Of a DNA stretch of 64,000 nt, positions 7,288 to 61,607 are shown piece after piece (positions within the stretch are counted from its first letter, which is position 1; every line of letters begins with the position of its first letter). The stretch covers positions 9,142 to 73,141 of the forward strand of contig CBDHEC010000018.1 in the NCBI GenBank assembly GCA_965261975.1, given 5' to 3'. The stretch comes from Alphaproteobacteria bacterium. GTDB lineage: Bacteria; Pseudomonadota; Alphaproteobacteria; UBA6615. Both the position numbers and the translations under genes were made by a program. The notes beneath the pieces are model-generated. The model had not been told where the DNA came from. It did not search any database and was given only the letters and a program-made list of their open reading frames with translations.

Positions 7288-8424
7288 TCAGGCCACCGCG
7301 ATGTCGCGGCCGATGATCAGCCGCTGGATATCGCTGGTGCCTTCATAGATTTTCGTAACCCGGACATCGCGATAGATGCGTTCCACCGGGAAGTCCTGCA
7401 GGTAGCCGTAGCCGCCATGAATCTGGATGGCATCCGAGCAGACTTCCTCGGCGATCTCCGACGCGTAGAGCTTCGCCATCGCCGCCTCGGTCAGGCAAGG
7501 CTCGCCCGCATCGCGCAACCGCGCGGCGTTATGAGTGAGCTGGCGCGCCGCCTCGAGCTTGGTGCGCATATCAGCCAACCGGAACGTCACCGCCTGATGC
7601 TCGATGATGGCCTGGCCGAAGGTCTCGCGTTCCTTCGCATAGGCCAGCGCGTGTTCGTAGGCAGCCCGTGCCATACCGATCGCCTGGGCGGCGATGCCGA
7701 TGCGGCCGCCCTCCAGGTTCGACAGCGCAATCCGGTACCCCTCGCCTTCCTCTCCCAGCAGGAGATCGGGGGTCAGCTCCATGTCGTCGAAGACGAGCTG
7801 GCAGGTATCGGATGCGCGCTGGCCCATCTTCGCCTCGACCGACGCGACCCGGTAGCCCGGCGTGTCCGTCGGAACGACGAAGGCGCTCATGCCCTTGCCG
7901 CCGGCCTCGGGGTCGGTCTTGGCGAACACGATCGCAATATCGGCGTTCTTGCCCGAGGTGATGAATTGCTTCGTGCCGTTGAGCACGTATTTGTTGCCGC
8001 GCTTCTCCGCCCGAGTGCGAATGGCCCCGGCATCCGACCCCGCACCCGGCTCGGTGAGCGCGAACGCGCCGAGCATCTCACCCGCCGCCAGCGGGCGCAG
8101 GAACCGCTCCTTCTGCTCTTCGCTGCCGAAGTTCAGGACGGGCAGACAGGCGACGGAATTATGCACCGCCATGATGGTTGAGCATGCGCCGTCGCCCGCT
8201 GCGATCTCCTCAAGTGCCAGCGCGTGAGTAAGCGTGTCGGCACCCGCGCCGCCCCAATCCTCGGGCACGACCATGCCCAGCAGACCCAGCTCGGCCATGC
8301 CGGTTACGGCTTCTTCGGGATATCGGGACTCCCGGTCCCAAGCCGCAGCATTCGGCGCGAGCTGCTCGGCCGCAAAGCTCCGCGCCATATCGCGGATCAT
8401 GACCTGTTCGTCAGTCAGCGGCAT
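7288..8424 (-). CDS. Short/branched-chain acyl-CoA dehydrogenase
   Basis: [26 protein letters not shown] and [10 protein letters not shown] motifs. Confidence 0.92.
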
Positions 8425-9067
8425 TGATCGTTGTCTCTCCCGCCACGAGTTCCGTCATCCCATCACCTTCCGGATCGATGCTGCACAGCCGACCGGCCTG
8501 CAGATCGACCCACCAGCCGTGCAGATGCAGCTCGCCAGCCTCCACCTTCTCCGCAACCCAGGGGAAACTCATCAGATTGCGCAATGACACCCTGATGCCG
8601 GCATGCTCCACGGTTTCCTGGTCCGGCACATTGCCGTCGGCGTCGCATGGGCAGGCATCCGCCGCAATCTGCATCCAGGGCGCGATGAAATCGCGCGGTA
8701 ATTCCTCGCCCGCGCTGGTGGCACGAAGCGCCCCGATGCCGCCGCAGGCCGAATGCCCGAGAATGACGACATGGCGAACGCCCAGGTCGCGCACGGCAAA
8801 CTCCATCGCCGCACTCGTTCCATGGGGGTGTCCGTCCGGGCCGTAGGGCGGCACCAGGTTCGCGACGTTGCGCACCACGAACAATTCGCCCGGCTCGCTG
8901 TCGAACAACAGGGCCGGATCGATGCGTGAATCCGCGCATGCGATGACCAACACATCCGGCGACTGCCCGTGCACCGCCAACTCGTGCATGCGCTCTGGGC
9001 GCTGCTCATAATACCGGGCGCGAAACCCCCGATATCCCGCGACCAAACGTTGAACTGCCTCTACCAC
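8411..9067 (-). CDS. Beta-class carbonic anhydrase
   Basis: CADSR and GHSACGG Zn ligands, RNVANLVPP; start reassigned to GTG 9067, preceded by AAGGAGG. Confidence 0.92.
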
Positions 9068-9729
9068 GCGACCTCCTTGCCTCGATAATCCAGAAACCGG
9101 CCGCTGTCCGTCGCGGACAGGCTGGCCAATACGTTGCGAATACCGCGTACGCTCTCTTCGGGTGATAGCGACGCATAGCTGCCGGTCATGTCCGTACGCA
9201 CATAACCGGGATGCAGCGCGACCGCGGTTACCCCCCGTGCCCGCCATTCGGGCTCATTCGCGCGGAACCGTTTGTTGAGTTCACCCTTGGAATCTCCATA
9301 CAGGTCCTGGCTTCCCCCGCGTGGCTTGCCCGAACCCTGGACGCTCGACATCACGGCCACCTTCCGCTCACGGCTGGCAACGACACTGTCGAGCAGGGCC
9401 GCAACCGTGGCGATTGGCGCTTCGGCGTTGATCCGCATGGAGAGCGCGGTCGTTTCCGCGTCGCCCGCACCCCGCCCGGCGTTGATACCGGCATTGTGAA
9501 TCAGAATATCGATCGCCTCGTCGGACAACGCATCGGCCAGCTCCGCGATCTGATCGTCCTCGACCACATCGAGCGGGTACAGGTTCACGTCCCCATCGAT
9601 GTCAGCCAGCGCGCCGGGCGCATCCGGCGTGCGGGTGGTCGCGAGCACCCGGCACCCATCGCCCGCATACTGGCGCGCGAGTTCAAGCCCGATTCCCCGG
9701 CTCGCACCGATCACCGCGACGGTGGTCAT
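9061..9729 (-). CDS. Short-chain dehydrogenase, CsgA/C-factor-like
   Basis: GASRGIG, HNAG, YGDSK and HPGYVRTDM motifs. Confidence 0.87.
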   Translation of the reverse strand: MTTVAVIGASRGIGLELARQYAGDGCRVLATTRTPDAPGALADIDGDVNLYPLDVVEDDQIAELADALSDEAIDILIHNAGINAGRGAGDAETTALSMRINAEAPIATVAALLDSVVASRERKVAVMSSVQGSGKPRGGSQDLYGDSKGELNKRFRANEPEWRARGVTAVALHPGYVRTDMTGSYASLSPEESVRGIRNVLASLSATDSGRFLDYRGKEVAW

Positions 9730-19692: not shown

Positions 19693-20361
19693 TCAATCTT
19701 CGATATCGGCCGGCTCCAGCACATCACTAACACCGATCATCGCGTCGCGCGTGACCAGTTTCGCGAGTTTTTCCTGGTCCCAACCGTCCGTCCCATCGGG
19801 GCGCTGCGGCAGAACCAGATAACGCAAATCAGCATTGCTGTCGTGGACGCGAACCTGTTTTTGATCGGGAATATTGGTGCCGAATTCCTGCAAAACAGAG
19901 CGCGGCTCGCGCACCGCACGAGACCTGTAGTCGCGACGCTTGTACCAGGCCGGCGGAATACCGAGGACTGGCCGCGGATAGCAGGAGCATAGCGTGCAAA
20001 CGACCATATTGTGGACGTCGTCGGTATTCTCGACCACGCACAGCTCGGTCGGGCGCATATCGATGCCGAAATCCATCAGCGCCTGATCGCTATCGGTCAT
20101 CAGCATTTCCTTGAACGCCGGATCGTCCCAGGCGCGGGCCACGATCTTCGCGCCCAACGCCGGCGTGCGGCTCTCGACCTGGTCAATTGCGCGACGGACA
20201 TCGTCGGACGAAATAACGCCTTTCTCGATCAGGAGCTCGCGAACCGATGTCTCGAGGATCTGCGCCTCGAGAGACGGCAACGGGTCCTCCTGGATCGGCT
20301 TGCCGTCATGGGTGTGCGTCGGATGATCGTGGTCGTGGGAATGTTCGTGCGTATCGCTCAT
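19693..20361 (-). CDS. Cobalt-type nitrile hydratase alpha / thiocyanate hydrolase gamma-like subunit
   Basis: Metal-binding VCTLCSCY (Co-type T/Y signature), GAKIVARAW and RAVREPR; His-rich N-terminus; start at ATG 20361. Confidence 0.9.
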   Translation of the reverse strand: MSDTHEHSHDHDHPTHTHDGKPIQEDPLPSLEAQILETSVRELLIEKGVISSDDVRRAIDQVESRTPALGAKIVARAWDDPAFKEMLMTDSDQALMDFGIDMRPTELCVVENTDDVHNMVVCTLCSCYPRPVLGIPPAWYKRRDYRSRAVREPRSVLQEFGTNIPDQKQVRVHDSNADLRYLVLPQRPDGTDGWDQEKLAKLVTRDAMIGVSDVLEPADIED

Positions 20362-20383
20362 GTCATCACCAATCTGCATGCGC

Positions 20384-20668
20384 CTAGGCAGGCGCGAGCC
20401 AATGTTCGTAAATCTCGATCTCGAGCGTGTCGTCTGCCGGACCCTCATAATCGCCCCACAGCTCGTCCTGCCTGAAGTTCACGCGGTAGAGCATCTTGTA
20501 GGGCAATCCCGAATGGCCGACCGCAAGCAGCTCCGGGTTGGGAAACGAGCCCACGATGCGTTCGATCACGCCGGTCTTGCCGCGCACATACATCGGCGTG
20601 CGCACATGGCCGGGCTGGTCACGATGCAGTACCTGAACCCGATCGCCGGGCTGAAACCTAGGATCCAT
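20384..20668 (-). CDS. Nitrile hydratase beta C-terminal SH3-like domain protein (thiocyanate hydrolase alpha-like)
   Basis: RFQPGDRV, GHVRTPMYVRGKTG, YRVNF and ELW...IYEHWL; start at ATG 20668. Confidence 0.85.
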   Translation of the reverse strand: MDPRFQPGDRVQVLHRDQPGHVRTPMYVRGKTGVIERIVGSFPNPELLAVGHSGLPYKMLYRVNFRQDELWGDYEGPADDTLEIEIYEHWLAPA

Positions 20669-20984
20669 TGCCGTCCGCCTCCAGGCGCGTCTGGACCTCG
20701 GCCTTCTTGGCTTCGAGTTCTTCCTGTGAATAGACACCCTTCTCGAGCATCAGCCAGGAAATCGCCTGGAGCCAGCGCTCGTAATAGGGATATTTGTGAT
20801 AGTCGTCGCCCAAGGCCTCCTGCATCCGGCGCGACTCGTCAACGCGCGCCAGACGCCGGCGCTGATCGAAGAGCAACATCATCATCGCGTCGACCGACTT
20901 TTCCCAGTGGGTCGGCACATGCTCATGCTTATCGGGATCGACCGGCCCTGCCGGCATCCCTCCGTAATCTTGTGGACCGCGCAT
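20658..20984 (-). CDS. Nitrile hydratase beta N-terminal domain protein (thiocyanate hydrolase beta-like)
   Basis: QDYGG, WEK, DESRR..EAL, YYERW and LEKG; start at ATG 20984 after GGGGAGAG. Confidence 0.83.
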   Translation of the reverse strand: MRGPQDYGGMPAGPVDPDKHEHVPTHWEKSVDAMMMLLFDQRRRLARVDESRRMQEALGDDYHKYPYYERWLQAISWLMLEKGVYSQEELEAKKAEVQTRLEADGNGS

Positions 20985-21152
20985 TCTCTCCCCTCGCGTG
21001 GTGCGGGCGGCATTTTCGGGGTCCTGCCCGGTCAAGGCAAGGACTTCGTTAACGAAACTGCGCAAATGACGCCTGTATCCCTATCCCTTTATATTTCCTC
21101 AATAAATACTCATCAGAATGGGCCGGGTCAGAATCTCCGGAGTCCTCGTTCC

Positions 21153-22352
21153 ATGGCTATGAATCGGCAACAACTCGCCCGCGCAATCGATGTCGGTCGC
21201 TCATCGACCCTGAATTGCTTCGAAACGACCAAGGATATTGCCGGCATTGCGTCGACAATCGCCGACGATGACCCCCTCGGGCCGCTTTTTCGCAATCGTT
21301 ACCTGAACGATTCGATCATCTTCAAAGTCGTTGATTCCGTGACCGTGCGCGGCAAGCGCGAGTACGGCGTCGAGACCCTGGTCTATTTTCCCTACAACCA
21401 CGACAACATGTACGAGGGTGGCGATTCCATCCTGGTCAGCGATCCGCGTCGCGAGGAAAAGCTGCTGAACAAGTGCGGCCTCGACATGAATCGCGAAGAC
21501 AAAGCCGAAGACGGCCGGTGGGATATCCAGATCATGGACATGATCGACCAGCTGCCCACTCTCGACCCGTTCCTGCTCAAATGTAAGGCCCAACAGTTAG
21601 GCATCGAGGAGCGGTTGAACCCGGCCTATTTCAACATCAGCCTCGAGGAATGGAATCGCATCCAGAAACCCATCCGAGAAAAAATCGATGCGCTGGTGCG
21701 TAAGGCGCTCGGCATGGAAGGCGATGACGATGCCACCGATCCGGATCTCAAGCTCAAGATCGAGCAGAACATCTCCAAGTTCCTGAAGAAAATATGGGAA
21801 GCGCGCGACATCGACGGTATCGAGGATTTCGTCTACGGCATGGAAATGCCGCCCGAGCGCGCGCCGGAACTGTTCTTCGCCTGCAAAGCGATTTGCTACT
21901 ACCAGGTGCAGTTCTCCGGCGTGGAGCCGGCGCTACGGAAACTTTTCGCCTGGCTCGGCGATGCCAAGACGGCGTTGCCCGTCGATTTCGGTGGTCTGCG
22001 CACCGAGGTTCAGGGCCAGATCAAGCGCGACCTCAAACAACTTCGGACGCTGTTTCGCGAGAACTATCTCAGCATCGTCAGCATGCTGGAGACCTACGAG
22101 GACAGCTACCGACAGTTCATCGAGGAAAGCAATCCGGCACCGTTCAAGAGTTTTCTCGGACAGGCGGACACCCATTATGTCGAACTGGCGGCCTGCCTGA
22201 GCAGCAACTCACACGCCATCAACCTGCTGCAGGACCAGATTGGTCGTACGGGCGCGCAGATCAACAGTGACCAGCACCGCGAACTGCTCGATTGCATGCT
22301 CGGTGTGTTCGGTGTCGAGCCGCAATCGGCCGACCTTCTGATAGCCAGCTAG
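21153..22352 (+). CDS. Hypothetical protein (399 aa, soluble, largely helical)
   Basis: Long ORF with host-like codon use filling the gap between the NHase-like operon and tetR; GGAG upstream of ATG 21153; no catalytic motif recognised. Confidence 0.8.
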   Translation: MAMNRQQLARAIDVGRSSTLNCFETTKDIAGIASTIADDDPLGPLFRNRYLNDSIIFKVVDSVTVRGKREYGVETLVYFPYNHDNMYEGGDSILVSDPRREEKLLNKCGLDMNREDKAEDGRWDIQIMDMIDQLPTLDPFLLKCKAQQLGIEERLNPAYFNISLEEWNRIQKPIREKIDALVRKALGMEGDDDATDPDLKLKIEQNISKFLKKIWEARDIDGIEDFVYGMEMPPERAPELFFACKAICYYQVQFSGVEPALRKLFAWLGDAKTALPVDFGGLRTEVQGQIKRDLKQLRTLFRENYLSIVSMLETYEDSYRQFIEESNPAPFKSFLGQADTHYVELAACLSSNSHAINLLQDQIGRTGAQINSDQHRELLDCMLGVFGVEPQSADLLIAS

Positions 22353-22921
22353 CGCGACTCCAGGTCGGACGTCAGCAGTTTTAGTCGGTGCGCCGCGCGC
22401 TCCAGGCGCTCTTCGACCGAGCGCGGCGTGTCGCGGGTCACATGCTCGCCAACATCGTAGAAATACCAGAGCCGCGCACGAAAGGCGGCGTCGGCCTCGT
22501 TCAGGCCCGCCTCCTCGAATAAGGCGCACGCGGTCGCCATCCGGCGATCGTCGATCGCGGCCACCGCATCCGCGACCTCCGAATCGAACTGGGCCCATGC
22601 GCGCATCGCATTGTCATACTGGTCGGGATCTTCGCGGGCGATATACTCGAGGATGGCCCACATCCGCTCGATCGGGCCGCCCGGCGCGGCCTGGACATGG
22701 GCGAGCACCGGGTCCGTCTGGCGACGCACCCAGAACTCCGGCAGCGACTTCAGGAGATCCTGACGGTTTTTGAAGTGCCAGTAGAAGCTTCCCTTCGTCA
22801 CCCCGAGGCGTTGCGCGAGGGGCTCGACCTTCACATGGTCGATGCCGCGCTCACGCAGCAATTCAAGCGCTTCGGCGAGCCAGGAATCCCTGTCCAAAGT
22901 TGGTTCGCGTTTGTCTTTCAT
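22349..22921 (-). CDS. TetR/AcrR family transcriptional regulator
   Basis: LAQRLGVTKGSFYWHF helix-turn-helix. Confidence 0.92.
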   Translation of the reverse strand: MKDKREPTLDRDSWLAEALELLRERGIDHVKVEPLAQRLGVTKGSFYWHFKNRQDLLKSLPEFWVRRQTDPVLAHVQAAPGGPIERMWAILEYIAREDPDQYDNAMRAWAQFDSEVADAVAAIDDRRMATACALFEEAGLNEADAAFRARLWYFYDVGEHVTRDTPRSVEERLERAAHRLKLLTSDLESR

Positions 22922-22945
22922 TCGCCCGTCACACAATTATGGAAC

Positions 22946-23112: not shown

Positions 23113-24075
23113 ATGACTGAACCAATCATCAAGGTTGCCGATCTCGCTTGGGGACGTATCAAGTCGCCCGATCTGGATGTCCAGGAAGAGTTCCTGACCA
23201 ATTTCGGGATGATCAAGGTCGAACGTACGAACGACAAGCTGTTCATGCGGGGCACCGGCGCCAGCCACCATATTCACGTGACAGAAAAGGGCGACCCCGG
23301 ATTCGTCAGCCTCGCCTTCCAGGCAACCAGCGAAGACGATCTGCACAAGATCGCCGCCGAAGCCGAGAGCGCGTCCGGCGTCGAGAACATCGACGAGCCC
23401 GGCGGCGGCAAGCGGGTCCGCCTGACCGAGCCCAACGGTTACACCATCGAGATCGTGCATGGCATCGAGGCCGTCGACGAGATCCCGGTCGAGCGCCAAC
23501 AATATAATCTGGGCAACATCGACAAACAGAAGCGCGCCAACGAGCTCTGGCGCAAGTCACCGGGACCGGCCACGGTGATGCGGATCGGTCATGGTGTCAT
23601 CGGCACACCCAAGATGCATGAATGTACGGCCTGGATCCGCCACCATATCGGCCTGATCGCCTCGGATGAGGTCTTCGTCGAGGACGACAAGGAAAAAGTG
23701 ATCGCGAGCTTCAACCGTATTGACGGCGGCGAGCGTTATGTCGACCACCATGTGTTCCTCTATATCGGCAACGAGAATGCCGGACTGAACCACCTGTCCT
23801 TCGAGGTCCCCGACTTCGATGACGTGATGATGGGACACGAGCATCTGCGTGATTCCGGCGACTACGACCATGTCTGGGGCATCGGACGTCACGTGCTGGG
23901 CAGCCAGATCTATGATTACTGGAAAGACCCGTATGGCCGGGTGCACGAGCATTGGGCAGACTCCGACACGCTCAACGCCGAATTCGAAACACGCTACGTT
24001 CCCGCCGACGAGGGTCTCAAATCCCAGTGGGGCGAGCCGGCGCCGATGGAATTCATCCATCACGTCAGCCCGTAA
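23113..24075 (+). CDS. VOC-family extradiol dioxygenase (trihydroxytoluene oxygenase-like)
   Basis: Two VOC domains; IGHGV, DHH, HLSFEV and WGIGRHVLGSQIYDYWKDP...EH; GGAGG RBS. Confidence 0.85.
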   Translation: MTEPIIKVADLAWGRIKSPDLDVQEEFLTNFGMIKVERTNDKLFMRGTGASHHIHVTEKGDPGFVSLAFQATSEDDLHKIAAEAESASGVENIDEPGGGKRVRLTEPNGYTIEIVHGIEAVDEIPVERQQYNLGNIDKQKRANELWRKSPGPATVMRIGHGVIGTPKMHECTAWIRHHIGLIASDEVFVEDDKEKVIASFNRIDGGERYVDHHVFLYIGNENAGLNHLSFEVPDFDDVMMGHEHLRDSGDYDHVWGIGRHVLGSQIYDYWKDPYGRVHEHWADSDTLNAEFETRYVPADEGLKSQWGEPAPMEFIHHVSP

Positions 24076-24217: not shown

Positions 24218-25897
24218 ATGACAGAAACAGACACCCCCGACGGAAACGAGACGGACGCAACCCCGCGCGATTTCATACGCGACCGGATCGCCACCGATCT
24301 CGAATCCGGACAGCATGAAGCGATCGTCACCCGGTTCCCGCCGGAGCCGAACGGCTATCTCCATATCGGCCACGCCAAGTCGATCTGCCTGAATTTCGGT
24401 GTCGCAGCGGAATTCGGCGGCACATGTAATTTGCGCTTCGACGACACCAATCCCGCGCGCGAGGACGCCGCCTACATCAAAGCCATCCAGGATGATGTGC
24501 GCTGGCTTGGTTTCGATTGGGGCGAGAACCTGTTCCACGCGTCCGACAATTTCGAACAACTCTATGACTGGGCCCGGCACCTGATCGAAAACGGCCTCGC
24601 ATATGTGGACGATTTGTCGGCAGAAGAAATGCGCGAGTATCGCGGCACCCTGACCGAGCCCGGCCGCCCGAGCCCTTATCGCGACCGAACCGTGGAAGAG
24701 AATCTCGACCTCTTCGCGCGCATGCGCGTCGGCGAGTTCGAGGACGGTGCCAGGGTGTTGCGCGCCAAAATCGACATGGCGTCGGGAAACATCAACCTGC
24801 GCGACCCGGTGCTGTACCGCATTCTCCGCGCCGACCATCCGCGCACCGGTGACGCCTGGTGCATCTACCCGACCTATGATTTCGCCCACGGCCAGACGGA
24901 CGCGATCGAGCATGTGACCCACTCGCTCTGCACCCTGGAGTTCGAAGATCACCGCCCGCTCTACGACTGGCTGATCGAAAATCTCCCTGTCCCCGCCCGG
25001 CCGCGCCAGTATGAATTCGGGCGCCTGAACCTTGGACACACGGTGCTGTCGAAGCGCCGGTTGATCCAGCTGGTCGAAGACGGCCATGTCGCCGGCTGGG
25101 ATGATCCGCGTATGCCGACCGTCTCCGGGCTGCGCCGCCGTGGCGTCCCGCCGGAAGCCATTCGCGATTTCATCGGCCGCCTGGGCATCACCAAGGCGGA
25201 CGGTCTCGTCGAGATGTCCTATCTCGAAAACACGATCCGCGAGCATCTCAACCAAACCGCGCCCCGCCGGATGGCCGTACTCGACCCGGTCAAGCTGGTG
25301 ATCGAGAATTACCCCGAGGGTCAGACCGAAGATCTGGACGGCATAAACAATCCGACGGACGAAAGCGCGGGCACGCGGAAGGTTCCGTTCGGGCGCGAGC
25401 TCTGGGTCGAACGCGACGACTATATGGATGATGCGCCGAATAAGTTCCGCCGACTGACAATCGGTCGGGAAGTTCGGTTGCGCTTCGCCTACTACGTAAC
25501 CTGTACCGGTGTGGTGAAGGACGCGGATGGTAACGTGACCGAGATTCGCTGCACCTATGACCCGGAAAGCCGCGGCGGCGACACCGCCGACGGCCGCAAG
25601 GTGCGCGGCACCATCCACTGGGCCTCAGCCGCACACGCCGAAACCGCGGAAGTGCGCCTCTATGACGAGCTGTTCACCGCCGAGGAACCAGGCAAGGAAC
25701 GTGACTGGCTGGACGACCTGAACCCGGCCTCGCTGGAGGTTCGGACCAATTGTTACCTGGAACCGGCCCTGGCCGAGGATTCCGGCGTTGTTCAGTTCGA
25801 ACGGTTGGGCTACTTCGCGGCCGATGCCGACTCCGCCCCCGGTGCGCTGGTATTCAACCGCACGGTCAGCCTGCGCGACAGCAAGCCCAAGGGCTAG
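24218..25897 (+). CDS. glnS: Glutamine--tRNA ligase
   Basis: [40 protein letters not shown] and QFERLGYF. Confidence 0.95.
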
Positions 25898-25923
25898 AAA
25901 CAACTTTCGATCGGAGCATTCGC

Positions 25924-26307
25924 ATGGAAATCAACATCCCCGAAGTCCTCGCCGAAGTGACGGCAGCACATGATCGGTATGAGGCCGCGCTGAGGACAAA
26001 CGATGTCGACGTGCTGAACGAACTCTTCTGGACCAACGATCTCACCCTGCGTTACGGCATCGGCGAGAATCTCTATGGTCACGATCAGATCGCCGGGTTC
26101 CGGGCCGCGCGCGACCCCAGCGACGTCGACCGCACGACCGGTCCCGTGATCGTCACCACCTACGGCCAGGATTTCGGCACCGCGAATCTTGAATTCTATC
26201 GCGAGAGCATGGGCGACGGACGCGGCCGCCAGAGCCAGAGCTGGGCACGCATGCCCGAGGGCTGGCGCATCGTTGCCGCGCATGTGAGCGTGATCCAGCC
26301 GAAATAG
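25924..26307 (+). CDS. AtzH-like / HpxZ (DUF3225, SnoaL-like) protein
   Basis: RYGIGENLYG, GRQSQSW and WRIVAAHVS; start at ATG 25924 after GGAG. Confidence 0.85.
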   Translation: MEINIPEVLAEVTAAHDRYEAALRTNDVDVLNELFWTNDLTLRYGIGENLYGHDQIAGFRAARDPSDVDRTTGPVIVTTYGQDFGTANLEFYRESMGDGRGRQSQSWARMPEGWRIVAAHVSVIQPK

Positions 26308-31043: not shown

Positions 31044-32634
31044 CTAGACGGCCGGTCCCATTCTGAAGGTCACGTCGCCGTCGGCCGCGATCTGGTCAAT
31101 GAGCGCGATTTCCCAGTCGATATACTCCTGCATCCTCGCCTCGACGTCGGTATTCCGGTCATAGGCGCGCAGGTAGACATCGATGCAGTCTTCGTCGGCG
31201 GGATAGGCCGGGTCGGCCTCGGTCGAATGACCCGACGCGACCCAGGCGTTCGTGCCGCCGGATAGAACCAGCACCTCTGCCTTTGTGAGGGCACGCGCCT
31301 CGTCGACGGCAAGCGCGGCCAGCCGCCCGTCGTCCGAGGTGAGAACCAGCGTGCCGTTATCCGACAATGCGTCAGGCAGCACCGGACCGGTCTTGGCGAT
31401 CCGGGAGCGTACGGCCCATTTCGCACCCGGGACGTGTCCCTTTCGGAACACACGACTCTCGCCCAGGTCGAGCACCATCACGTCGCCGCCGGGAAGACGC
31501 TCGGCCAGCGCGTCGGAATCGATCACCGGGACGTCCACGGAGAGAAGGTCGGTGCGGGCGCCCGTTTCGAGCTCGCCGGATAGTCCGCCATCGAGCACAT
31601 ACACGTCCGGATAGCCCATCTGCACCAGCCAGTGGGCGGTCATGGTCGCGCGCACGCCCGTGTCGTCGATCAGGACGATCCGTCCGTTCGGCACGCCGAT
31701 CTGGAAGTCGGTGGCTTGGACCAGCTGCCCACCAGGCGCGGAACGCGAACCCGGCAAATGGCCCGCGGCGAACTCATCGGGGTCACGCACGTCGAGCAGA
31801 TAAAGCGTGCGGCGGTCGGCCTCGCCCTGCCAATCGGCGAGCCGGGTCCGGTCTATCGTCTCGACGGCATGATCCGTTGCGATCCGGTCGCGCATGGCGA
31901 TCGCCGCGTCCAGTGTCTCGGGATCGCCAGAGGAAAATCGGTCGGTCCGGCCATGTTCGAGTTCAAGCCCGGCGAGATGCCAGCCCATCGTACCGTTTTC
32001 AAGCGCGACGACCTTGTTGGCGATGCCCGCGTTGATGACCGACTGGGCGCCAAGAATGCTGCGAGTGCGCCCCGCGCAATTGACCACGACAAGGGTGTCG
32101 GGAGACGGCGCCAGGTCACGCACCCGGTAGGCGAGTTCGCCGCCCGGTACGCTGACCCCCTGGGGGATATTCATGTTGTGGTACTCGGCGAAGGTACGGG
32201 AATCGAGGACCACCAGATCGTCGCCGCGATCCTGCATCGCCTTGAGCTCGGATGCGTCCACCGACGGCGTGGCGTAGTGATGCTCCACCGCCTCCCCGAA
32301 GGCCTTGCTCGGCACGTTGATGCCCGAATAGATCGTAAAGCCCGCGGCCGCCCAATCATCGGGCGTGTCGGGACAGATCACGACATCCGCATATCCGAGT
32401 GCCGCCAGCGCCGCCGCGCCGCGCGCCGCAAGGTCCGCATCACCCGCCGTGACAACGACAACTGCGGTGCTTTTTCGCGGCACAAGCCGGGGCACCTCGA
32501 ACTCCAGCCGGCTCAAGGGCGCGTTAACCCGCCCAAAAAAGGTGACAGGCGCCAAACTCGCCCTGCTCACGCAGGTCGAGCAGCGCCAGTTCGTCTCTCG
32601 CCCCAAGGGCGGTGCGTAAAGTCACTGAATTCAT
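31044..32634 (-). pseudogene. Multi-domain rhodanese/sulfurtransferase with a +1 frameshift near the 5' end (real or sequencing error)
   Basis: From ATG 32634: MNSVTLRTALGARDELALLDLREQGEFGACHLFWAG*; removing one G at 32528-32530 gives ...HLFWAVNAPLSRLE, in frame with the long ORF (NCAGRTRS, LDVRDPDEFAAGHLPG). Confidence 0.8.
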
Positions 32635-60106: not shown

Positions 60107-61522
60107 CTAAACCCCCATCGGTGACGGGCCGAGCCGTTCGCGCGGCGTGCCCAGCACGTTCTCGGCTGCCAATGCGACGCCGAGCGCCGTCTCTTCGAAC
60201 CCGTCGCGGCAGACGATCTGCATACCCACAGGCATGCCCGCATCATCCAGCCCCACCGGGATTGTCGCGGCACACTGGTTCAGCAAGCTGACCGTCACCG
60301 TGTTCTGCACGAACAGCGTGTTCGCCTTGAGATGGGTCTCCGGCGTGGCGATGTCCGCCATCTTCGGCGGCGTGATCGGGATCGTCGGTCCGACAATGGC
60401 ATCGAACGGCCCAAACGCCGCATCGACGGTCGCCGCCATGGTCGCGACGTCACGCACACGGCGCAAATGTTCGGCGGCGGTGTAGTTTTCCGCCGCGGCC
60501 AGCCGGATCGCCACCGCAGGGTCCAGGTCGTCCTTGTAGTCGATCATCTCGTGGTTGATGAAGCTGGAGAACTCGCCGATATGCAATCCGCCCGCATCGT
60601 TGAGGGCGGTCACATCATCCAGATGGGGCAGCGTCGCTGATGAGACCCGTGCCCCCGCCTTCTCGAGCTCGGCGAGCGCTTCGTGGACACGTTCCGCAAC
60701 GCCGGGGTCACAGTTTTCGAAATACCAGTCACAGACGCCTATCCGGAAGTCGGCCATATCCACCTCGGCCAGCACACCCAGGAACCCCGACACGTCGCCG
60801 CCCAGCAGCGGATCGATCGCCGCGAAGCCAAAGGCGAGATCACCCGCGCTCCGCGCGATGGGCCCCGGTGTGTCGAGCGACGGGACGAGCGGCACAATAC
60901 CATCGATAGACCAACGGCCCGGGGTCGGGCGAATACCGGCGGTGCCCGTCACCGTTGCGGGCATCCGGACAGAGCCGGCCGTGTCCGTGCCGATGGCGAG
61001 CAGTGCCGAGCCCTCGTGCAGGCTCACCCCGGCGCCGGAACTCGAGCCTGCCGGCGAGCGGTGATCCTTCGCGTCCCAGGGATTGCGTGGCGGCCCCCAA
61101 TGTCGGTTCGCCCCCATGCCGCCGAAGGCAAACTGCACCGTATGCGCCTTTCCCGAGATGACCCCCAACTGTTGACGAATGGCGCGCACGACCGGCCCCT
61201 CGTTCTGCCACTTCTCCGGCAACTCGCGGGGACAACCGGCGAAGGTCGGGTATCCGGACACGCCGATCAGATCCTTGATCGAAACCGGGATACCCTGCAG
61301 CGGGCCGAGGTCGATGCCCGCAGCAAACGCTGCATCCGCCGCCGCAGCCTCACCACGAAGCTTGTCGGGCACCCAGGTCTTGTAGGCATGCAACGCCTCA
61401 CCGCGCTGGTCATGGTTATCGATCGCCCATTCCGCGATACCGATCGCGGTCTGGCTGCCGTTTCGCAGCGCTGATGCAATTTCCACGAGCGATGCGGTCG
61501 CAAGATCCGGTGTCGATGTCAT
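60107..61522 (-). CDS. Amidase signature family protein
   Basis: GIPVSIKD, PAGSSSG and GTDTAGSVRMPA (Lys-Ser-Ser triad); start at ATG 61522. Confidence 0.9.
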   Translation of the reverse strand: MTSTPDLATASLVEIASALRNGSQTAIGIAEWAIDNHDQRGEALHAYKTWVPDKLRGEAAAADAAFAAGIDLGPLQGIPVSIKDLIGVSGYPTFAGCPRELPEKWQNEGPVVRAIRQQLGVISGKAHTVQFAFGGMGANRHWGPPRNPWDAKDHRSPAGSSSGAGVSLHEGSALLAIGTDTAGSVRMPATVTGTAGIRPTPGRWSIDGIVPLVPSLDTPGPIARSAGDLAFGFAAIDPLLGGDVSGFLGVLAEVDMADFRIGVCDWYFENCDPGVAERVHEALAELEKAGARVSSATLPHLDDVTALNDAGGLHIGEFSSFINHEMIDYKDDLDPAVAIRLAAAENYTAAEHLRRVRDVATMAATVDAAFGPFDAIVGPTIPITPPKMADIATPETHLKANTLFVQNTVTVSLLNQCAATIPVGLDDAGMPVGMQIVCRDGFEETALGVALAAENVLGTPRERLGPSPMGV

Positions 61523-61607
61523 GCTGTTCTCCCCCGATTTGGTCGCTATTGTTCCATCAAACGCCCCCACGGGGCCACCAGCCATTGCCGCCTACGGACC
61601 GACCTCA

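Follow-up and report, generated by a model that had tools for sequence, protein, structure and literature searches.

Introduction

Industry relies on nitrile hydratases as major catalysts, and a 2026 mBio paper suggests that these enzymes take part in marine nitrogen cycling. According to the available part of PMC7329996, the enzyme of Streptomyces canus CGMCC 13662 is encoded by anhD-anhE-anhA, with AnhD and AnhE as the N- and C-terminal parts of the beta subunit; that genome yielded no activator gene, cobalt is inserted directly under reducing conditions with AnhD as a metal and self-subunit-swapping chaperone, and the enzyme acts on acetamiprid, thiacloprid and benzonitrile, not on indole-3-acetonitrile. 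It branches with the Streptomyces rimosus enzyme in the accessible section of a 2026 review. ToyJKL of S. rimosus is composed of PF02979, PF02211 and PF21006 (excerpt of bioRxiv 10.64898/2026.04.15.718813), and a review, as far as its available text goes, gives the gene set of thiocyanate hydrolase as alpha, beta, gamma and activator. Here we analyzed a 64,000-nucleotide stretch of an Alphaproteobacteria bacterium (assembly GCA_965261975.1, contig CBDHEC010000018.1, positions 9,142–73,141; the window), in which an operon at 19693–20984 comprises genes for two beta-subunit parts (betaN and betaC) and an alpha subunit. These three genes are predicted to encode an activator-independent, cobalt-type, three-subunit nitrile hydratase, a reading to which we assign a probability of about 0.72. 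The operon is intact and belongs to a widespread, already described architecture, within an unstudied alphaproteobacterial subfamily.

Operon organization and family assignment

The three open reading frames (ORFs) are arranged head to tail on the minus strand in the order betaN-betaC-alpha. BetaN (20658–20984; 108 amino acids, aa) carries PF21006 NHase_beta_N (E 1e-17), betaC (20384–20668; 94 aa, starting MDPRFQPGDRV) carries PF02211 NHase_beta_C (E 7.4e-22), and alpha (19693–20361; 222 aa, starting MSDTHEH) carries PF02979 (E 9.5e-81). The betaN ATG is preceded by a GGGGAGAGA ribosome-binding site. The betaN stop and betaC start share 11 nucleotides (nt), ATGGATCCTAG (20658–20668), an overlap that suggests translational coupling, and the alpha ATG follows the betaC stop after 22 nt. 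Homologs of alpha begin with MS(D/E)xH, and the longer upstream alpha starts present in the ORF list are unused by them. A beta subunit divided between two overlapping genes and accompanied by an alpha-like gene had been proposed for these minus-strand coordinates from sequence inspection, and the Pfam matches together with the 11-nt overlap bear this out.

Against the 226-position beta model TIGR03888, betaN covers positions 1–100 (55.2 bits) and betaC positions 127–226 (79 bits), and we therefore regard them as two halves of one beta subunit. BetaN also gave a weak match to the accessory-protein model TIGR03889 (E 0.0053). Alpha passes the NCBIfam nitrile hydratase alpha model TIGR01323 (256 bits; cutoff 249.85) and fails the thiocyanate hydrolase gamma model TIGR03887 (217.9 bits; cutoff 291.45).

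Searches against solved structures placed all three subunits closer to cobalt nitrile hydratases than to thiocyanate hydrolase. Alpha scored 202–235 bits with cobalt nitrile hydratase alphas versus 189 with thiocyanate hydrolase gamma, betaN 30.3 with Pseudomonas putida beta versus 22.8 with thiocyanate hydrolase beta (and 30.0 with the iron-type Rhodococcus beta), and betaC 62 with cobalt-type beta versus 43.9 with thiocyanate hydrolase alpha. The best solved relative of betaC was the P. putida cobalt-type beta (residues 122–219). CTLCSC of alpha, Arg52 of betaN, the Tyr and Trp of PYYERW and YVRGK of betaC were all kept in these alignments.

Distribution and phylogeny of the three-subunit family

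In a homolog search with alpha, the best 120 listed matches were 61–93% identical to the window sequence. Where names are given, they read nitrile hydratase (subunit alpha) for the protein and Alphaproteobacteria metagenome bins for the organism; CSCYPR is present in 119 of the 120, and sampled N-termini are His-rich. A scan of one genome per species, with an alignment of 26 subfamily alphas as query, gave at least 569 confirmed matches, of which the best 80 loci were retained for analysis. Of the two patterns used in the scan, one fitted every cobalt-type alpha; the other, (V/L)RVHDS(N/T)AD, is specific to the three-subunit type, and because the loci were thus partly selected by a family motif, the best 80 are of the window's kind by construction. 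The sole close relative among them is L001 (71% identity), an Alphaproteobacteria metagenome-assembled chromosome, and the subfamily context comes from these two related genomes. The betaN ortholog in L001 is 78% identical to that of the window.

BetaN and betaC occupy separate ORFs in 70 of the 80 loci, 66 in the order betaN-betaC-alpha and 4 as betaC-alpha-betaN. Nine loci yielded one half or none (contig ends or betaN-alpha fusions), and one, L076, has a classical fused beta. This recurrence bears directly on whether the two beta genes are the decaying or non-functional remnant of a frameshifted gene, a notion whose one point in favor is that classical enzymes have a single beta gene. Separate ORFs, mostly with overlapping start and stop, across 70 of 80 related loci are not what a frameshift artifact would leave; both halves are 78–79% identical in L001, where the overlap is equally long (11 nt), and the catalytic and second-shell residues are intact. 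The conservation data contradict the remnant explanation, which we consider virtually without prospect.

At the alpha position occupied by Trp or Arg, the 80 loci have Arg in 72, Lys in 5, Trp in 2 and Val in 1. A split beta does not always go with the Trp-to-Arg change: locus L056 (7320–8618) combines it with an alpha bearing CSCYPWP. None of the 80 alphas reaches the TIGR03887 thiocyanate hydrolase cutoff (top score 234.2); most score near the nitrile hydratase cutoff, and the classical L076 alpha scores 317.8.

An exhaustive betaN search returned 625 clusters (50% identity) at E ≤ 1e-3. Among the 150 best cluster representatives, 129 are shorter than 170 aa and hence count as stand-alone N-domains. 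Four homologs of ~190–210 aa (P0367, P0368, P0387 and P0428) show two matched stretches, the one in the second half being the better, and may be tandem N-domains or an activator-like part fused to betaN. Loci L004, L008, L049 and L070 (~7690–8660 each) carry betaN and alpha in one open frame of ~320 codons, with no betaC detected in these loci by tblastn, and may represent a bacterial betaN-alpha fusion form.

An alpha tree of 109 sequences (the window, 21 database relatives, the 80 loci, 4 plasmid three-subunit and 3 plasmid classical enzymes) was built by a quick IQ-TREE run under LG+G4, with SH-like approximate likelihood ratio test (SH-aLRT) support only; its three-subunit rows are all uncharacterized. 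It separates 105 three-subunit-type rows from 4 classical ones (SH-aLRT 99). The window falls in a 20-row alphaproteobacterial subclade (support 99) with L001 and database relatives bearing generic names, and deeper branching within the three-subunit family is poorly resolved. The subfamily, hosted by uncultured Alphaproteobacteria, is marked by a tail ending HDGKPIQ, CSCYPR(P/A) and the betaN motif DESRR.

Two labeled sequences were set aside. P0330, annotated as 'thiocyanate hydrolase subunit gamma', scores 247.1 against the cutoff of 291.45 and is not a true one. L015 is titled 'uncultured Streptomyces sp.'; its alpha sits among Burkholderiales rows in the tree and its sole named alpha relatives (79–81%) are Burkholderiales and Betaproteobacteria, for which reason it was dropped as a stand-in for the S. 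canus enzyme. Its title may reflect a binning or labeling error.

A supported sub-group of the tree comprises L010, L026 and L031 from genomes and L081, L083 and L087 from plasmids; the plasmid hosts are Burkholderia sp. PAMC 26561 and Rhizobium leguminosarum (L081/L083) and Azospirillum (L087, alpha only). L010, L026, L031, L081 and L083 share the order betaC-alpha-betaN, CSCYPRP and a betaN E-E-K-R-R motif with Lys at the position of thiocyanate hydrolase Arg90. The Burkholderia betaC of this sub-group has an N-terminal twin-arginine-like extension (RRSWLK...), and the annotated neighbors include HoxN or CbtA/CbtB cobalt transporters, cyanase, cytochrome P460 and sulfite oxidase. The sub-group is more thiocyanate hydrolase-like than the window, still under the NCBIfam cutoff.

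Active-site residues and substrate preference

The metal-binding and pocket motif of alpha, V121-CTLCSC-YP-R130-P131 (19969–20001, minus; VCTLCSCYPRP, residues 121–131), is unvarying from V121 to R130 among the 26 subfamily sequences, and position 131 is Pro or Ala. VCTLCSCY is the same as in solved cobalt enzymes, in agreement with the cobalt-type assignment of CTLCSC made in the original prediction. The Thr in C-T-L-C-S-C is presumably a cobalt-type marker. R130 stands directly after C127-Y128-P129, three residues past the last Cys ligand, where the solved cobalt enzymes have Trp (CSCYPWP versus CSCYPRP), and the alignments confirm the predicted replacement of the classical Trp by Arg. We take gamma Arg136 of thiocyanate hydrolase to be its counterpart. 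Window alpha scored 205.6 against 201.9 with 3vyh (Pseudonocardia alpha variant chain) and 185.5 against 189.1 with 3vyg (thiocyanate hydrolase gamma variant chain). These chains are presumably W-to-R and R-to-W swaps, respectively, at the R130 site, and the score shifts follow the directions expected of such swaps.

In betaN, D49-E50-S51-R52-R53 (20826–20840, minus) presents the conserved second-shell Arg52 flanked by Ser51 and Arg53, and pairs with DEFRH of P. putida beta. The betaN of L083 (R. leguminosarum plasmid) has thiocyanate hydrolase beta (2dd4_B) as its best match, HMMER pairing its E-E-K-R-R with E88-E89-R90-R91-R92; in a MAFFT alignment of 79 betaN sequences, the window D-E-S-R-R occupies the same columns as L083 E-E-K-R-R. 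By this transitive alignment, Arg52 and Arg53 correspond to thiocyanate hydrolase beta R91 and R92, and Ser51 stands at the Arg90 site, where classical enzymes have Phe, so that the predicted lack of the extra thiocyanate hydrolase pocket Arg holds. We assume Arg90 to be the residue that matters in that enzyme.

Residue counts over the 75 of 80 loci having a betaN row show how ordinary most of this pocket is. Position 52 is Arg in 74 and position 53 in 66, whereas position 51 varies: Leu 51, Met 8, Asn 3, Lys 3, Ala 2, Val 2, and Ser, Thr, Phe, His, Gly and a gap once each. The single Ser51 belongs to L001, and DESRR, including Ser51, is retained in all 6 closest betaN cluster representatives. 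On these counts across 75–80 loci, the Arg52-Arg53 pair and alpha Arg130 are family-wide traits; Ser51 characterizes the subfamily, at a site that varies and probably tunes specificity. Three elements of the original prediction lose their force here. The alpha Arg is no hallmark of thiocyanate hydrolase, being found in 72 (and replaced by Lys in 5) of the 80 partly motif-selected loci, none over the NCBIfam cutoff; the 'missing' beta Arg is not distinctive, as 51 of 75 loci have Leu there; and, with Arg130 common and position 51 variable, the 'hybrid pocket' is what a very large three-subunit family normally has, save for the subfamily-specific Ser51.

These residues also frame the question of whether the operon encodes an enzyme of the thiocyanate hydrolase type, turning thiocyanate into carbonyl sulfide plus ammonia. 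The order N-half, C-half, alpha-like matches scnB-A-C as the original prediction gave it, an scn order that is unconfirmed; alpha has Arg after CSCYP, the two betaN Arg align with beta R91 and R92, and the alpha N-terminus pairs with the gamma chain from residue 4. Genes for a beta-class carbonic anhydrase (8414–9247, minus) and a multi-domain rhodanese (31047–32606, minus) lie 10–12 kb off and lend weak support, as they are not adjacent to the operon. The contrary evidence is broader: alpha falls well short of TIGR03887, as do all 80 related loci; matches to solved cobalt nitrile hydratases outscore those to thiocyanate hydrolase for every subunit; Ser replaces Arg90; betaN lacks the N-terminal extension, aligning with residues 45–145 of the 157-residue 2dd4_B; no activator lies downstream, whereas the review, in its available text, lists one in the thiocyanate hydrolase cluster; and the Arg is common, occurring in 72 of the 80 nearest loci, which span many bacterial groups. 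We therefore consider thiocyanate hydrolysis very improbable for this operon.

A second possibility is a nitrile hydratase specialized for a small polar or anionic compound with a C–N triple bond (cyanamide, for instance, or a nitrile bearing a carboxylate) in preference to neutral aliphatic or aromatic nitriles. Judged by homology, R130, S51 and R53 would line the pocket, which is predicted to be more polar and more basic than the classical one, with alpha Arg130 for Trp, betaN Ser51 for Phe and Arg53 for His or Phe. Ser51 is specific to the subfamily (window, L001 and the 6 closest representatives), other loci having mostly Leu, and stand-alone operons without amidase suggest that the amide product enters general metabolism. 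Against such specialization, Arg130 and Arg53 occur throughout the family, no particular compound is indicated by a transporter or pathway gene, and the same-architecture enzyme of S. canus takes neutral bulky nitriles (PMC7329996, available part, in which its residues at these positions do not appear). On balance, we regard this specialization as unlikely.

Maturation and proposed mechanism

No second betaN-like or activator-like ORF was found with the betaN profile among 896 six-frame ORFs of the 64-kb window (next E 4.6). A profile match on the alpha ORF was an artifact of the four fused betaN-alpha rows (L004, L008, L049 and L070) within the profile, and the window contains no TIGR03889-level match besides the weak one of betaN itself. 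The closest amidase-family gene, encoding an amidase-signature protein, lies ~40 kb off (60110–61585, minus). The absence of an adjacent activator or amidase gene, as proposed earlier, thus stands.

By homology with characterized enzymes, alpha would bind the metal through its CTLCSC claw, betaN and betaC would jointly replace the usual single beta subunit, and second-shell arginines would come from betaN Arg52 and the Arg of betaC YVRGK, with the Tyr and Trp of the PYYERW motif supplied by the beta halves. The assembled enzyme would hydrate a nitrile (R-CN) to the amide. After the S. canus precedent, as described in the available part of that report, betaN is probably a cobalt and subunit-swapping chaperone, which would account for the lack of an activator gene. 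We hold this nitrile-to-amide mechanism with betaN-assisted self-maturation with good confidence as a homology-based proposal.

The original prediction had also pointed to the His-rich alpha tail, which is present as described: the His/Asp-rich segment MSDTHEHSHDHDHPTHTHDGKPIQ (20290–20361, minus) opens the protein, and the tail MSDTHEHSHDHDHPTHTH places 7 His within the first 40 residues. At least 3 His precede the first conserved helix in 98 of the 105 three-subunit-type alphas. The suggested role of this tail in cobalt delivery is weakened, because at least 4 His also occur in 3 of the 4 classical alphas examined and because, according to the accessible portion of a review, the Monosiga enzyme can take up its metal without the His17 linker.

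Several points weigh against the assignment as a cobalt-type three-subunit nitrile hydratase. Alpha clears TIGR01323 only narrowly, and each beta half lies far under the TIGR03888 cutoff of 152.2, which is to be expected of a half. A pocket this basic and polar could indicate a substrate other than an ordinary nitrile. S. canus and S. rimosus were unnamed in three alpha searches (120 listed matches each, most of them nameless), and no cobalt transporter was seen among the scanned window ORFs, the choice of ORFs being crude. Plasmid three-subunit relatives adjoin genes for the cobalt transporters HoxN or CbtA/CbtB, an arrangement that favors cobalt use by the family; parts of these relatives are annotated only as 'nitrile hydratase subunit alpha' and 'SH3-like domain-containing protein'.

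Genomic neighborhood

The window is syntenic with L001 over at least 14 genes, namely those for GlnRS, an extradiol dioxygenase, TetR, a protein of no assigned family and the three hydratase subunits, together with M23 peptidase, bactofilin, a threonine dehydratase-like protein, HAD hydrolase, lytic transglycosylase and DapA. Given this synteny, the hydratase operon appears to have been passed on vertically; its surroundings are of housekeeping type. At the window locus, no gene for an amidase, an aldoxime dehydratase or a transporter was found as a partner of the operon.

An A+T-richer intergenic region of 168 bp (20985–21152), a probable promoter region, separates the operon from a divergent gene (21153–22352, plus; 399 aa). 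It holds a single sigma-70-like match (21066–21095, plus strand), at a frequency no higher than in shuffled sequences. A pattern scan found no terminator 3' of alpha, where the predicted fold does not surpass that of shuffles (z 0.34). The divergent gene product is 54% identical to that of the same-position L001 gene (6007–7176, minus) and had no match in Pfam, NCBIfam or Atlas; its AlphaFold2 model, from a two-row alignment, is mostly helical with a mean pLDDT of 38.

Farther on, a TetR-family regulator (22349–22936, minus) is divergent from an extradiol (catechol-type) dioxygenase homolog (23113–24075, plus). Both also stand beside the operon in L001 (72% and 73% identity) and are probably a separate regulatory pair, TetR being likelier tied to the dioxygenase than to the operon. 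An AtzH-like protein (25750–26304, plus) and the rhodanese and carbonic anhydrase named above are nonadjacent to the operon with no link shown; together with the amidase-signature gene they lie 5–40 kb from it.

Neighbor conservation was assessed by clustering the ORFs of the 80 loci and scanning 27 cluster representatives against Pfam. No generally conserved neighbor emerged across the 80 loci, only lineage-specific housekeeping genes, the commonest being DUF1223 (13 loci), aconitase (10) and ABC ATPase (10). EamA transporters (6 of 80 loci) and HupE/UreJ (3 of 80) were the sole hints, and no amidase or aldoxime dehydratase was among the 27 scanned representatives.

Discussion

As a single locus, the window operon is an ordinary member of its family. 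The Arg-type, split-beta, activator-less form makes up nearly all of the best 80 of at least 569 scan matches and, by the names encountered, is almost wholly unstudied. Finding the natural substrate of one stand-alone operon would help interpret all such operons, and an enzyme that matures without an activator is convenient for expression. As a tentative and rather doubtful extension, the window subfamily might comprise hydratases of distinct function, in which a pocket lined by Arg and Ser fits a small nitrile-like metabolite, polar or anionic, that differs from what any nitrile hydratase studied so far takes as substrate; on a wider view, stand-alone operons of the Arg-type, three-subunit form (at least 569 scan matches) might serve unrecognized housekeeping turnover of nitriles or cyanide adducts rather than xenobiotic breakdown.

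Comparison with known systems

With the classical cobalt nitrile hydratases of Pseudonocardia thermophila, Bacillus and P. putida, the window enzyme shares CTLCSCY, beta Arg52, the Tyr and Trp of PYYxxW, and YxRGK. Those enzymes differ in having one beta gene of ~220–230 aa, Trp at the R130 site and an accessory-protein gene. The accessory gene is present in all 3 classical plasmid clusters examined, in the order beta-alpha-accessory or alpha-beta-accessory. Rhodococcus and Parageobacillus clusters carry an amidase, and that of Rhodococcus also the HoxN cobalt transporter; none of these is at the window locus.

The thiocyanate hydrolase of Thiobacillus thioparus (PDB 2dd4 and related entries) resembles the window enzyme in its three subunits, in the Arg three residues past the last Cys ligand, in the His/Asp-rich start of the window alpha and in beta R91 and R92, matched by the betaN Arg pair. 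The window enzyme departs from it in scoring under the NCBIfam cutoff, in Ser at the beta Arg90 site, in the lack of an activator gene, and in a betaN of 108 aa that has no N-terminal extension (beta, 157 aa). The likeness of split and gene order noted in the original prediction thus extends to the ToyJKL families and the thiocyanate hydrolase layout, the scnB-A-C order itself being unconfirmed.

Ensifer adhaerens CnhA/PnhA, first considered as three-subunit enzymes, were dropped from the comparison, as the paper on them shows alpha-beta-activator clusters. Literature searches on three-subunit nitrile hydratase turned up no paper on proteobacterial ones. Comparison with the two Streptomyces systems is by published description only, as given in the available parts of the sources. 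Like ToyJKL of S. rimosus, the window enzyme is built of PF02979, PF02211 and PF21006; ToyJKL sits in a 7-deazapurine biosynthetic cluster, unlike the window, which has no such genes.

The S. canus AnhD-AnhE-AnhA enzyme shares with the window operon the order N-half, C-half, alpha, the lack of an activator gene and the cobalt type, differing in being actinobacterial and studied on insecticide nitriles. The description of an uncharacterized enzyme system in the original prediction therefore does not apply to the architecture, which has a studied member in S. canus (PMC7329996, available part). With AnhDEA and ToyJKL described, to the extent that these sources were available, neither the betaN-betaC-alpha architecture nor activator-free maturation is new; both are already in print, and the window operon adds an alphaproteobacterial subfamily, marked by Ser51, to that record.

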